This document shows positions 1 through 43,864 of a stretch of 43,864 bases of DNA, piece by piece (positions within the stretch are counted from its first letter, which is position 1; each line of letters starts with the position of its first letter). The position numbers and the translations under genes are program-made. Under the pieces are notes generated by a model. That model ran no database searches and had not been told where the DNA came from. It was given only the letters and a program-made list of their open reading frames with translations. Origin of the DNA: a virus (Duplodnaviria > Heunggongvirae > Uroviricota > Caudoviricetes); IMG/VR virus record IMGVR_UViG_2698536620_000007; one strand, written 5' to 3'.

Positions 1-140
1 CATTGAGATTTTCTACAATCGTCAGCGTCGTCACTCTCGTCTGGGGAATATCTCCCCGGCAGCCTTCAGGGAAAAATATCATCAGATGGCTGCTTAAAAA
101 AAGAACAAATGGTAGTGTCCGCTATTGCCAGTACACCTCA
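1..140 (+). mobile_element. Right end of an IS3-family insertion sequence (transposase 3' end plus terminal inverted repeat); the element body lies left of the window
   Basis: Frame 2 (2..97) reads IEIFYNRQRRHSRLGNISPAAFREKYHQMAA*, the typical C-terminus of an IS3-family DDE transposase OrfB. The element ends ...CCTCA at 140; its reverse complement TGAGGTGTACTGGCAATAGCGGACAC resembles the IS3 terminal repeat. 1-140 is the exact reverse complement of 43725-43864. Confidence 0.8.
2..97 (+). CDS. IS3-family transposase OrfB, last 31 codons (5' part outside window)
   Basis: Open frame from the window edge to TAA at 95-97 with the conserved FYN..R.HS.LG..SP..F C-terminal motif. Confidence 0.75.
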   Translation: MEIFYNRQRRHSRLGNISPAAFREKYHQMAA

Positions 141-141
141 G

Positions 142-339
142 CTATTACCTTCTTCAGAGAGCCCCCAGCTACTTCCTGTGACTCTCGATGCAGCTGCCGA
201 ACAGCCAGAATCGCTCGCAGAGGACCCGAAAACCCTCAGTATCAGCTGTGAGGTAACGTTCCGGCACGGGACGCTCCGCTTCAATGGCAATGTCAGCGAA
301 AAGCTCCTGACTCTGCTGATACAGGAACTGAAGCGATGA
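142..339 (+). pseudogene. IS66-family orfA (TnpA accessory protein) 3' fragment, truncated by the IS3-family insertion
   Basis: Open frame begins exactly at the IS3 end (the first 10 codons of track ORF 109..339 are IS-derived). It ends with an ATGA overlap onto the IS66 orfB start at 336, the usual IS66 orfA/orfB coupling. Confidence 0.6.
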
Positions 340-659
340 TCCCGTTACCTTCCGGGATCAAAATTTGGCTGGTTGCCGGTATCACCGATATGAGAAATGG
401 CTTCAACGGCCTGGCTGCGAAAGTACAGACGGCGCTGAAAGACGATCCCATGTCCGGCCATGTTTTCATTTTCCGGGGCCGCAGCGGCAGTCAGGTTAAA
501 CTGCTGTGGTCCACCAGTGACGGACTGTGCCTCCTGACCAAACGGCTGGAGCGTGGGCGCTTCGCCTGGCCGTCAGCCCGTGATGGCAAAGTGTTCCTTA
601 CACAGGCGCAGCTGGCGATGCTGCTGGAAGGTATCGACTGGCGACATATAACCAGGTGA
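336..659 (+). CDS. IS66-family Orf2/TnpB protein
   Basis: 107-aa ORF with the IS66 Orf2 signature (IWLVAGITDMRNGFNGLAAKV...DPMSGHVFIFRGRSG..VKLLW...GRFAWP). Confidence 0.85.
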   Translation: MIPLPSGIKIWLVAGITDMRNGFNGLAAKVQTALKDDPMSGHVFIFRGRSGSQVKLLWSTSDGLCLLTKRLERGRFAWPSARDGKVFLTQAQLAMLLEGIDWRHITR

Positions 660-661
660 AT

Positions 662-820
662 CATTTGATACCGACAAGGGGTTTAGTGAAAGGAGGTGAA
701 ATCACCTGTAAGATACTGAAATAAAACAGGTGATGGCTAGATGTGCGGATAAGGTCTATTTGATACCGATTGTGCAATAATTAGTCATTTATTATAAAAT
801 CGGCAACTCATTTGATACTG
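662..820 (+). repeat. Left-end (attL-like) array of putative transposase-binding repeats
   Basis: CATTTGATACCGA at 662-674, TATTTGATACCGAT at 757-770, CTCATTTGATACTG at 807-820; the same core is found inverted at the right end. Confidence 0.55.
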
Positions 821-892
821 TGGTTTTAGTCTTTTAAGGCGTTCCAAACAATGCGAAATACTCGATATAGTGCAAAATGCGGGCTAATGCTA

Positions 893-1438
893 TTAACCCG
901 CTTTTGGTTCTACCGCGTTAGATTTGCGACTTCTCTCAGTTTCTTCCAAAATCTCTCTGACGCGTTCGTCAGACATACCTTCAAGCTGTAATGCAGCTAT
1001 TCTTTTCCTTCCTTCTAAGCGGATTAGATCTTGATTTTCAGGCTCTAACAACCGAGCTAAGTACTTGGCTCCATTCAGAACCAAATTTTTCGATAGCTGC
1101 TCTAAGTCTTTTTCATCAAGTGCGCTGATAATCGTCATAATTATCTTCTTGCTTTCATCTTGATTTTCCTTGATCTCACACCGATTCACTTGTGATGCAT
1201 CACTGAATCCACATAGCCACTCAACACTTACTCCTTCGATAGACGCAATCTGAAGGGCGACACTTAAGGATGGCTCAGTGCCACGAGACAGATAATTGTT
1301 TAGTGTTGAAAATGAAAGCCCCCAATCTCTTGCTGCAGCTCTGACGCTGCGGGAGCCAATCAGCCTTTTCAGACGCTCAGCAATGCTTTCTTTTCTACCA
1401 CCAGGAAAAGAAAGAGATGTTGTTGTTTGCTTGTTCAT
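893..1438 (-). CDS. Prophage repressor (Mu c-like, HTH)
   Basis: 181-aa minus-strand ORF at the left end, divergent from ner, as in Mu. HTH-like segment AARDWGLSFSTLNNYLSRG. Confidence 0.65.
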   Translation of the reverse strand: MNKQTTTSLSFPGGRKESIAERLKRLIGSRSVRAAARDWGLSFSTLNNYLSRGTEPSLSVALQIASIEGVSVEWLCGFSDASQVNRCEIKENQDESKKIIMTIISALDEKDLEQLSKNLVLNGAKYLARLLEPENQDLIRLEGRKRIAALQLEGMSDERVREILEETERSRKSNAVEPKAG

Positions 1439-1570
1439 TTTCTTTTCTTCCTATCAATTTGAAATTATTAACTTTTAGTGTTGTCAGCAACCATTGATCC
1501 ACAATAGACAAAAGAAAGATGTTTTTTTTGCTTTACATGAAGCAGAAGTGGATCAATACTTATATCAAAC

Positions 1571-41671: not shown

Positions 41672-41788
41672 TGAATAAGCCGCAACTGGCGGAATCACAG
41701 AAGACCGCTTTGCTTACCGAAGCGGAGTCTGTCATCCGGCCGCGGGGGCGTGCTGTCAGGCTGAACAGGGAAACGGATGAATCCGGGG

Positions 41789-41815
41789 AGGCCCGGGGGC
41801 GGGCCTCTGTTTTTC
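41789..41815 (+). terminator. Rho-independent terminator
   Basis: AGGCCC-GGGGGC-GGGCCT followed by CTGTTTTT. Confidence 0.55.
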
Positions 41816-41850
41816 CGGAGTCAGTCCGGTCTGTGGTTTATGCGATGTGA

Positions 41851-43557
41851 TTATGAATGGTGCAGTTGTGAGCCGTTTTCAGACAATCGCAGGGCCAGTA
41901 CCTCGTCAGTCAGCTGACGGTAAATCTGCTGTTCAGTCTCACGCATCACCTGTGCACCGGCTTCCCTCTCCGCATCCGCATCACCGCTCAGACCTGATGC
42001 TTTCAGCCGGTCAGCCACCCTCTGAGGGTACTCATTCTCCAGCATCTCATATTTCTGCTCTTCTGCCAGCGCCCAGCGGTCAGCTTCCGTACGCTTCAGT
42101 ACAGCATGCCATGGTCCCCAGAGGGAGAACCAGTCCGTAAATTCATTCTCTTCACGGCTTCTGACCATGGCTTCGGCAGTGCGGAGGTCATTTGCTGTCA
42201 CTCCCGACACGCCATAGAAACGCATTTCCTTCACGGCAGTGGAGAGCTGAAGTTTCTCTGCGAGCATGGTCTGGAAGGCCAGGTAGACTTCTATCTCATC
42301 CACAAAATGGAGAGTTCTGACTTTATCCCGGGCAATGTCCTCCAGAATTTCGAGGCGGAACATTTCCCTGCCCAGGGAGAGCAGAGCGCCGGTATCATTA
42401 TCGAAAAGGCCTTCTGATGCCTGATGGACCAGGAGGGTTTTCCGGAGATTGTTCCATGTGAGCGCGACACGGTCCTCACAGCTCTCAGTGGCATCAGCAG
42501 CAACAGCGAAAGACTGCTGTCGAAGCTCCGCAGAGGCACTGAGTTTTTCCAGCCATGCAGCGACCTGTTCACGGAATCCGGAGGTATTGCGTGCAGAGAC
42601 GGTATCGGAAAGGCGGTCAAGGAACGCGGAAAAGGTGTTGGCGTGCTCTTCATGTTCAAAAGCATGCCATATCTGTGATACATCAGATTGTTTGTTTTCC
42701 GGGAACCATGCTGTCACGGCATCAGCCAGGGGGCGATGGAGTGTATTCTGTTGTCCGTCACTCATGGAGAAGTAAATCCGTGGGCCGTGGTAGTCCGGTT
42801 GGGCGGTTTGTTGCGACAGAGACTCCCTGATCCGTGAGGACAGAGGATTGTCTTCGAGGATGATAGTGCAGGTCGGATCAAGGCTAAGTATATTTTCCGG
42901 AATGTATGTGATGCGATTCTCGCGGCACCGGAAAAATATCTCGGTTTCCTCTGAGTGATGATTTCTTACAGGTACGGCTGGTAGGCTTTCCAGAAGATTA
43001 GTACTTACATCGAGCGCTTCCAGTGATTCAGGTAACTCAGGGAGAAATGTCAGCTGGTTATTTCTTACTGAGAGCACTTCCAGCGATGTAGGTAATTCAG
43101 GAAGCATGGTTAGCTGATTGTTATCTGCATTAATATATTCCAGCAATGCAGGCAATTCAGGAAGCATGGTTAGTTGGTTGTTATCTACATCAAGATGTTT
43201 CAGAGATGCGGGTAATTCAGGAAGTGTTGACAGGTGATTGTCACAGGCGTCAAGGTATTCCAGCGATGCTGGCAATTCTGGTAATGATATTAGGGCATTC
43301 TGAGTAATTTCCAGAACAGTGATTTGAGGTGGTAAGTTGTCAGGTAGCGAGGACAGATTTAAACGATTCAGTTGAAGCTCACTGAACTGATTGATGAGAC
43401 ATTCTTTAAGTAGGGAGACCGCTTCATTCCGATTTTCACCGGGGAGCGCTTGTTTTTCCCATTTATCCCATGCTGAAAAGTAATCAGCATATGTACCGGA
43501 AATAGTGTTATAAAAAGAATTTTGGGACAATGAAAAGTTATTATTTATCGGTAACAT
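41851..43557 (-). CDS. ipaH: IpaH-family T3SS effector (LRR domain plus NEL E3 ubiquitin ligase)
   Basis: N-terminus MLPINNNFSL...; LRR repeats (LPELPASL...); C-terminal NEL domain with the catalytic-Cys motif CEDRVALTWNN; likely start is the fourth codon of the track ORF. Confidence 0.9.
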   Translation of the reverse strand: MLPINNNFSLSQNSFYNTISGTYADYFSAWDKWEKQALPGENRNEAVSLLKECLINQFSELQLNRLNLSSLPDNLPPQITVLEITQNALISLPELPASLEYLDACDNHLSTLPELPASLKHLDVDNNQLTMLPELPALLEYINADNNQLTMLPELPTSLEVLSVRNNQLTFLPELPESLEALDVSTNLLESLPAVPVRNHHSEETEIFFRCRENRITYIPENILSLDPTCTIILEDNPLSSRIRESLSQQTAQPDYHGPRIYFSMSDGQQNTLHRPLADAVTAWFPENKQSDVSQIWHAFEHEEHANTFSAFLDRLSDTVSARNTSGFREQVAAWLEKLSASAELRQQSFAVAADATESCEDRVALTWNNLRKTLLVHQASEGLFDNDTGALLSLGREMFRLEILEDIARDKVRTLHFVDEIEVYLAFQTMLAEKLQLSTAVKEMRFYGVSGVTANDLRTAEAMVRSREENEFTDWFSLWGPWHAVLKRTEADRWALAEEQKYEMLENEYPQRVADRLKASGLSGDADAEREAGAQVMRETEQQIYRQLTDEVLALRLSENGSQLHHS

Positions 43558-43685
43558 GATGGACATTCAGTTAAAGCCGATGGACAAATGGCTTTGTTAA
43601 AAGAAATAAGTAGGAGTTTTTATGAAGTTCATTCCATGAAATGAACTTCAGCACTTTTTTATTATAAAAGGACAAACAAAATTGG

Positions 43686-43702
43686 CTGTAAAAAAACGAT
43701 AC
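43686..43702 (-). promoter_or_regulatory. MxiE box upstream of ipaH
   Basis: Minus strand reads GTATCGTTTTTTTACAG, a 17/17 match to the reported MxiE box consensus GTATCGTTTTTTTANAG, about 130 bp upstream of the ipaH start. Confidence 0.7.
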
Positions 43703-43724
43703 TGTTTCAGTTAACTGTGAATAG

Positions 43725-43864
43725 TGAGGTGTACTGGCAATAGCGGACACTACCATTTGTTCTTTTTTTAAGCAGCCATCTGATGATATTTTTCCCTGAA
43801 GGCTGCCGGGGAGATATTCCCCAGACGAGAGTGACGACGCTGACGATTGTAGAAAATCTCAATG
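43725..43864 (-). mobile_element. End of a second, inverted copy of the same IS3-family element (body lies right of the window)
   Basis: Exact reverse complement of 1-140; contains the transposase C-terminal codons on the minus strand. Confidence 0.8.

Follow-up and report, generated by a model that had tools for sequence, protein, structure and literature searches.

Composite transposons of the Tn10/Tn5 type place two inverted copies of one insertion sequence around a cargo, and in Shigella sonnei inversions of ~34 kb flanked by IS3-family elements and of 20-45 kb flanked by IS4 elements have been confirmed by long reads, with both states found across lineages (PMC12795559). Simple insertions of IS600 in the chromosomes of Shigella and EIEC are also already known. 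The window, as we call the whole 43,864-bp stretch of DNA analysed here, shares the Tn10/Tn5 geometry, and a preliminary description read it as a composite, inversion-prone unit bounded by two inverted copies of an IS3-family element. As we discuss below, the terminal inverted repeat does exist in the sequence but very probably marks an assembly boundary rather than the limits of a genetic unit, with the join inside the window an artefact of repeat resolution or scaffolding.

Coordinates of features in the window
Feature	Position	Strand	Description
IS600_L right end	1..140	+	orfB last 31 codons and stop (2-97), IRR ...CACCTCA; left contig end
IS600_L inner target-site duplication	141..143		GCT, 3 bp
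IS66-family fragment	141..646	+	3' part of tnpA, and tnpB (336-659); PF05717 TnpB_IS66
Mu-like transposable prophage	647..39322	+	38,676 bp, inserted in IS66 tnpB
Prophage genes	MuA 1857-3944; MuB 4018-4959		also repressor, ner, kil, gam, gemA, mor, head and tail genes (Pfam)
Scaffold N-gap	32752..32803		52 N, wrong length
G-like invertible segment	32853..34185		86-nt inverted repeats, 32853-32938 and 34100-34185
gin recombinase gene	34256-34828		adjoins G-like segment; PF00239 Resolvase/HTH_7
Prophage right-arm genes	SASA-domain protein 34914-36968; com/mom 38295-39194		also gin (Pfam)
IS66-family remainder	39323..39924	+	rest of tnpB; 152-aa TnpC C-terminal fragment (39413-39871); PF03050/PF13817
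Tail-fibre module remnant, tailed phage	39931..41671	+	phage_tail_N protein 39931-41097; DUF4376 protein 41048-41671
Multi-copy repeat R	40397..42630		tail fibre, DUF4376 and conserved 3' half of ipaH
ipaH3	41851..43566	-	571 aa; type III secretion effector E3 ubiquitin ligase, LRR and NEL domains
IS600_R inner target-site duplication	43722..43724		TAG (CTA on minus strand), 3 bp
IS600_R right end	43725..43864	-	second IS600 copy; right contig end

Self-comparison of the window confirmed an exact reverse-complement match between bases 1-140 and bases 43725-43864, which ends sharply at base 141, with 12 mismatches within the following 20 bases. Chance cannot produce a perfect inverted match of 140 nt. 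The proposed IS3-family right end, including the transposase C-terminus, was also borne out, and the element is IS600: the arms are 100% identical to annotated IS600 and comprise its right end (IRR, ...CACCTCA) and the last 31 transposase codons plus stop (IEIFYNRQRRHSRLGNISPAAFREKYHQMAA), with the IRR of both terminal copies pointing inward. The IS600_R edge sits 158 bp upstream of the ipaH3 start codon. The perfect identity of the arms had been taken to indicate recent transposition or gene conversion, but it is no sign of either because IS600 copies are nearly identical everywhere. Among 40 IS600 right ends from the fetched loci, ~33 are identical to the window over all 140 bases and ~32 of these over 400 nt, and the arm sequence has matches at 99% or better in 3,160 E. 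coli records; identity over 140 nt appears, on these comparisons, to be what any two IS600 copies show. A polymorphism among IS600 copies at position 141 was ruled out as the cause of the 140-nt depth, as there is no variation over 400 nt in most of them.

Closed genomes hold a full IS600 at both sites, at the left in L016 (6510-7773) and L002 and at the right in L004-L012 (8579-9842 in L005), and thus the window ends do not belong to partial fragments. At both sites the closed copies are 1,264 bp long, have TG...CA termini (IRL TGAGGTAGCC..., read in L016 and L005), and encode a 385-aa joined product with HTH_Tnp_1, HTH_21, and rve domains; straight translation runs out of frame after ~100 codons, as expected with frameshifted orfA/orfB. 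Target-site duplications were read in these closed relatives, as the outer IS600 flanks lie outside the window. In L016, IS600_L stands between ...AAAGCTGCT and GCTATTACC with the duplication GCT/GCT, and in L005, IS600_R stands between ...GCAAGCTA and CTATTCACAG with the duplication CTA/CTA. The empty site of IS600_L, GGGAAAGCTGCTATTACC, is present in draft L003, and empty sites of IS600_R are present in EIEC L001 and in the closed genome CP179997.1 (L013). In L015-L020, IS600_L is present but the Mu prophage is not, and L013 lacks IS600_R. That each IS600 has a 3-bp duplication and an empty site of its own means that IS600_L and IS600_R are two independent simple insertions, with no composite transposon. 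L003 was not accepted as proof of an IS600-free ancestor carrying the Mu prophage, a use that is unsafe because its contig may follow another IS66 copy.

IS600_L cuts the tnpA gene of an IS66-family element, the left part of which is 100% identical to L016 7634-8279. The end of its tnpB gene is replaced by prophage sequence (107 aa vs 115), and L016 retains the uninterrupted prophage site, where window base 646 directly joins 39323. The prophage duplication (GACA) is exactly 4 bp, compared to 5 bp for phage Mu. Prophage copies of the same type, ending at exactly 39322 and starting at 646-648, occur at many unrelated E. coli sites; this recurrence with identical ends and the short duplication, together with MuA/MuB, Mu-type head and tail genes, gin, and com/mom, support assignment of the prophage as Mu-like. 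Most of what had been described as a lambdoid remnant at 34-39 kb is the right arm of this prophage (gin, the SASA-domain protein, and com/mom), and apart from the tail-fibre module the window has no lambdoid-type remnant. The G-like segment, a feature distinct from the terminal repeat, appears, from sequence comparison, to be the only part of the window with evidence of inversion, as sibling draft L038 seems flipped there (window 33001-33107 matches L038 107-1). The only lineage-private SNP in 28-39.3 kb, at 36230, is synonymous. The ipaH3 gene is annotated as ipaH3/Hc in EIEC, and its exact protein is found in closed S. sonnei genomes.

The window is one entire draft contig, CWVG01000023.1 (43,864 bp); its sequence matches closed S. 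sonnei chromosomes, and the 9,934 bases fetched from the record (33931-43864) are identical to it. Because the window is a whole draft contig, the 140-base arm length was set by assembly and not by biology, with k-mer size or contig extension as candidate causes of exactly 140. Very probably the assembler failed to pass the multi-copy 1.26-kb IS600, so that the contig ends 140 nt inside one copy on both sides; sibling draft L038 stops at the same IS600 depth. The contig is in fact a scaffold, because its 52-N gap stands for 9 nt (CCGTTACCT); the gap puts the tail-fibre gene at 32288-33212 out of frame. In 108 of 110 collection blocks with the IS66/Mu junction protein, the longest contig was 20-50 kb.

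In closed genomes, the two IS600 copies reside at separate loci, one on the purL side and the other on the rsmF/yebW side. In CP179952.1, both are on the + strand (~1,018,282-1,019,545 and ~2,487,821-2,489,084), in direct orientation and with 1.47 Mb between them. The left part of the window matches the purL-side locus to 42630 and the right part matches the ipaH3 locus from 41779; the overlap contains just one SNP (42507), and the switch from one locus to the other falls within 41779-42506. Repeat R recurs with at least 99.9% identity on the purL side (L016) and at an mlrA-side locus (L014/L021), which matches the window as far as 42813, and its sequence from 41779 on is found unchanged at the ipaH3 locus (L005) as well. 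The repeat linking the two loci spans 0.85-2.2 kb and is present at a minimum of three loci. Plasmid-borne ipaH copies, considered as a source of the C at 42507 as a majority allele, are only ~98% identical over the stretch.

The join in the window was absent at more than 20 closed-chromosome places examined, where DUF4376 was followed by a 603/608-aa ipaH (purL side) or ipaH3 had IS600 72 nt downstream. A private SNP at 41026 retrieved close relatives as draft contigs only. Sibling drafts sharing this SNP end at 41331 or 42642 or hold 508-N or 229-N gaps at ~41.4-41.5 kb, and one runs into smpB-ratA, not ipaH3. The repeat-crossing sibling contigs without a locus switch (L041, which is the window, L038, L040, and L042) all have the ipaH3-type allele at 42507 and ipaH3/ipaH547-type bases from 42631, and three of the four reach the same IS600 edge. 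The IS600-IS66-Mu junction was found in no E. coli complete genome, and scanning viral, genome, and metagenome collections for the exact Mu/IS66 junction pattern yielded 0 matches. CP176614.1 (L002) is the sole closed genome known with the same left junction; it was not among the matches to ipaH3, DUF4376, the 684-aa SASA-domain protein, the 299-aa Mom call, or the 152-aa TnpC fragment. Relatives carry parts of the 43.6-kb block separately.

Repeat resolution, or scaffolding across repeat R, would link the purL-side and ipaH3 loci. Because these loci are joined only via a multi-copy repeat and lie 1.47 Mb apart in CP179952.1, the 43.6-kb spacing and the inverted arrangement are probably a scaffolding construct, and we infer that the join is artefactual in this particular strain. 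It is unlikely, by contrast, that the join is real and arose when ipaH-ipaH recombination inverted ~1.47 Mb and so placed an inverted IS600_R 43.6 kb from IS600_L. The substrates would be the conserved 3' halves of the 608-aa ipaH on the purL side and of ipaH3, in a S. sonnei sublineage; these genes lie in inverted orientation to each other in CP179952.1, and a crossover in 41779-42506 would yield the exact order and strands of the window. The ipaH3-type path taken by the window contig and three sibling contigs is consistent with such an event and could reflect a real join in this sublineage, and precedents exist in the 20-45-kb IS-flanked inversions of S. sonnei lineages (PMC12795559) and in the frequent rearrangement of Shigella genomes (PMC8072062). 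However, this arrangement is present in no closed genome examined, the junction lies wholly within the repeat where siblings break, hold N-gaps, or join smpB, and the end points of such a 1.47-Mb inversion would place it off-centre with respect to both origin and terminus. Inversions of that kind are usually costly. The closed genomes examined all have one arrangement, with duplications intact and unexchanged, and neither an inverted state of the 43.6-kb segment nor adjacency of IS600_L and IS600_R was seen among them. Hence, the earlier picture of an inversion-prone segment flanked by two inverted copies finds no support in these genomes.

Mobility of the prophage and ipaH3 as one 46-kb IS600-based composite transposon is so improbable that we reject it. 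Geometry alone, in the form of two inverted IS600 ends around a segment, speaks for this reading, whereas the 3-bp duplication and matching documented empty site of each IS600 (L003 for the left copy; L001 and L013 for the right) speak directly against it. Moreover, the insertions occur separately, with IS600_L found apart from the Mu prophage in L015-L020 and IS600_R missing in L013, two chromosomal loci make up the mosaic interior, and the block was found at no second location.

An assembly boundary remains the preferred reading of the window ends, and it carries two cautions. A perfect terminal inverted repeat may simply reflect a draft contig that enters the same insertion sequence from both sides, and loci separated by megabases can become joined when a contig runs through a multi-copy repeat. 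The content of the window is ordinary for S. sonnei: IS600 copies, an IS66 remnant, a Mu-like prophage, and a chromosomal ipaH gene. Were the join real, then the 43.6-kb segment with its Mu-like prophage and ipaH3 would truly lie between inverted full IS600 copies and could flip again, and the locus would provide a modest illustration of how paralogous effector genes can drive an inversion of large size.

Among described systems, the window resembles repeat-bounded short-read draft contigs, with both ends at the same depth in a repeat, an N-gap of the wrong length, and siblings that stop at the identical base. Unlike the usual contigs of this kind, it enters both repeat copies from the IRR side, creating a perfect terminal inverted repeat that mimics biology. 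Its IS600 copies are no different from simple IS600 insertions in other Shigella and EIEC chromosomes, except that just the last 140 nt of each copy are seen. In Tn10/Tn5-type transposons the duplications surround the whole element, whereas here they surround each IS600, the two copies arrived in separate events, and the block was found at no other site. The IS-flanked inversions of S. sonnei (PMC12795559) would have the same geometry if the join were real, with tens of kb between inverted insertion sequences, but the IS600 adjacency and flipped state of the window segment are seen in no closed genome. Within the prophage, the G-like segment resembles the Gin/G-segment switch of phage Mu in its ~1.3-kb length, 86-nt inverted repeats, and adjoining serine recombinase gene.

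Bases 43725–43864 of the window are the exact reverse complement of bases 1–140, and a repeat search found only one other long inverted pair in the window, an 86-nt pair within the prophage. The terminal match breaks off sharply, as 12 of the 20 positions from base 141 onward differ, and chance cannot explain its perfection over 140 nt. Each end encodes the last 31 residues of a transposase and a stop codon, followed by an IRR that ends in ...CACCTCA and faces inward at both ends of the window; thousands of E. coli records carry 100% identical ends, annotated as "IS3-like element IS600 family transposase". 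These ends have all the defining features of IS600, and the IS3-family right end with transposase C-terminus reported in the preliminary description is IS600 over 140/140 nt. The same description took the perfect identity as a sign of recent transposition or gene conversion, but it is uninformative on recency: among 40 right ends of IS600 from the loci that we fetched, ~33 match the window exactly over 140 bases (~32 of these over 400 nt), and matches to the 140-nt end at ≥99% occur in 3,160 E. coli records.

The window consists of one entire draft contig, with an assembly breakpoint at each end: CWVG01000023.1 of assembly GCA_001249615.1, reached through the window's tail-fibre protein with its private SNP at 41026, has the same length (43,864 bp) and is identical over the part compared (record bases 33931–43864; 9,934 bases). 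Several features agree with this assignment: where the window has a run of 52 N (32752–32803) every related prophage has just 9 nt (CCGTTACCT), the longest contig is 20–50 kb in 108 of 110 collection blocks holding the IS66/Mu junction protein, a sibling draft contig (L038) terminates at the same IS600 base as the window, and closed chromosomes, including HE616528.1 (S. sonnei 53G), match the window. The N run, which breaks the frame of a tail-fibre gene (32288–33212), is a scaffold gap of mis-estimated length; the left inverted repeat of the G-like invertible segment lies 50 nt away. As both ends are assembly breakpoints, the 140-nt arm length comes from the assembler and is uninformative about IS600 itself.

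Features of the window
Feature	Position	Remarks
IS600 right end (IS600_L)	1–140	
IS66-family fragment	141–646	tnpA cut by IS600_L; tnpB (336–659) shortened to 107 aa
Mu-like prophage, 38,676 bp	647–39322	MuA, MuB, kil, gam, gemA, mor, head and tail genes, SASA-domain protein, com/mom
G-like invertible segment of prophage	32853–34185	
gin, gin-type serine recombinase gene	34256–34828	
Remaining IS66 element	39323–39924	
Tail-fibre N-terminal gene and DUF4376 gene	39931–41671	
ipaH3, 571 aa	41851–43566	minus strand
Second IS600 right end (IS600_R)	43725–43864	

Outward extension in closed relatives found full 1,264-bp IS600 copies at both sites (left, 6510–7773 of L016, the closed S. sonnei purL-side locus; right, 8579–9842 of L005, the closed S. 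sonnei ipaH3 locus). GCT lies on both sides of the left copy, with empty-site sequence GGGAAAGCTGCTATTACC in draft contig L003 (CWZC01000017.1), and CTA on both sides of the right copy, with empty-site sequence ...GCAAGCTATTCACAG... in EIEC (L001) and closed CP179997.1 (L013). The two copies also occur separately, in different genomes, and IS600_L and IS600_R are independent, complete, ordinary insertions. Because each has its own 3-bp duplication and they occur separately, movement of the block as a composite transposon, the unit originally proposed, is excluded, and in closed genomes with these duplications the two copies have not recombined with each other. IS600_R is polymorphic among closed genomes bearing this ipaH3, because the site in CP179997.1 (L013 9770–9860), which lacks the IS600 upstream of ipaH3, is cleanly empty.

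In L005, ipaH3 is a 1.95-kb piece flanked by two inverted IS600 copies. A third IS600, 72 nt downstream of ipaH3 in closed S. sonnei (L005 11786–11791, 13050–13055), has no target duplication (TTC vs CAT), and the tail-fibre/DUF4376 genes of the EIEC ipaH3 locus are gone from the closed S. sonnei locus; together, these features resemble a scar left by a deletion or rearrangement that IS600 mediated. Drafts L003 (1–357) and L052 (AGRD01000057.1) traverse the IS600_L site without IS600, L003 entering an intact IS66 tnpA. Either IS600_L is missing from these strains or their assemblies took another IS66 copy; if the L003 strain truly lacks IS600_L, the order in which Mu and IS600 inserted would be paradoxical.

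At the uninterrupted prophage site in L016, window base 646 runs straight into 39323, with a GACA duplication. This site and prophage copies at unrelated E. coli sites fix the prophage borders (647–39322), and the supposed lambdoid remnant is therefore mostly the right arm of the Mu-like prophage. The 86-nt inverted repeats of its G-like segment, next to gin, are 93% complementary, and the segment is apparently in the opposite orientation in L038 (1–107); it is the sole piece of the window with evidence for inversion. Strain 53G (HE616528.1; L027 14380–14440, L046 5519–7344) has an intact IS66 tnpB; a related Mu-like prophage, with 48 mismatches to the window over 24871–32751, interrupts its tail-fibre gene at window-equivalent 40533, an independent insertion slightly more than 1 kb away from where the window's prophage inserted.

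The 43.6-kb spacing of the two IS600 copies is the weak point of the original finding. Window 1–646 plus 39323–42630 corresponds, with 2 mismatches, to the locus beside murR-yfhB-tadA-mltF-purL (L016), which in closed genomes runs on into another ipaH (603/608 aa) that lacks an upstream IS600, and 41779–43864 matches the ipaH3 locus near rsmF/yebW (L005) at 100% identity. These identities overlap at 41779–42630, the conserved 3' half of ipaH, and the switch between loci falls within 41779–42506, because the lone SNP in the overlap (42507) carries the ipaH3 allele. A third locus, near mlrA, has 40397–42813 in common at 99.8–99.9%. Inward-facing IS600 ends do bracket the contig, but in closed CP179952.1 both copies are on the + strand at ~1.019 Mb and ~2.488 Mb, in direct orientation and 1.47 Mb apart.

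Two simple IS600 insertions, transposition of a Mu-like prophage into IS66 tnpB, at least three loci with copies of a phage tail-fibre/ipaH repeat family, and a draft contig starting and ending in IS600 are established; that the assembler linked the ipaH3 locus to the purL side via the repeat is inferred. Sibling drafts were defined by a private SNP at 41026, where T is shared by a mere seven draft contigs, including the window, and by the EIEC ipaH3 locus; all closed S. sonnei purL- and mlrA-locus copies have A. Alternatively, the join would be real if an ipaH–ipaH crossover had inverted 1.47 Mb in this sublineage. In the reference, the two ipaH genes lie in inverted orientation, such a crossover would yield the window's structure exactly, and the ipaH3-type path is followed by the window contig and by all three siblings crossing the repeat with no locus switch. 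We nevertheless consider this event unlikely: the join is absent from all >20 closed-chromosome places examined (with CP176614.1, the one closed genome with the IS600-IS66-Mu left junction, covered on its left side), and sibling drafts falter at the repeat, with one contig ending at 41331, another ending at 42642, and gaps of 508 N in one and 229 N in another at ~41.4–41.5 kb, the latter contig going on into smpB-ratA instead of ipaH3. Repeat resolution or scaffolding therefore produced the connection across the repeat, which siblings do not reproduce, and the join is more likely artefactual than real.

If the join were real, the inverted IS600 pair could recombine and flip the 43.6 kb, as any inverted IS pair could; IS-flanked 20–45-kb inversions are documented in S. 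sonnei (PMC12795559), and frequent IS-driven rearrangement is well described in Shigella (PMC8072062). The initial observation is confirmed and its interpretation only partly supported, and the finding consists wholly of established biology and an assembly boundary. A composite transposon is defined by an outer target duplication and by occurrence at other places, whereas the window block has no such duplication and was not found elsewhere; a demonstrated invertible segment is defined by a second orientation, but comparison of the closed genomes examined revealed none for the 43.6-kb segment. Phage Mu has TG...CA ends and makes a 5-bp duplication; by contrast, the prophage here ends in 5'-TATAACC...GCGCTATA-3' (642–650, 39318–39327) and is flanked in its IS66 tnpB target by an exact 4-bp duplication (GACA).
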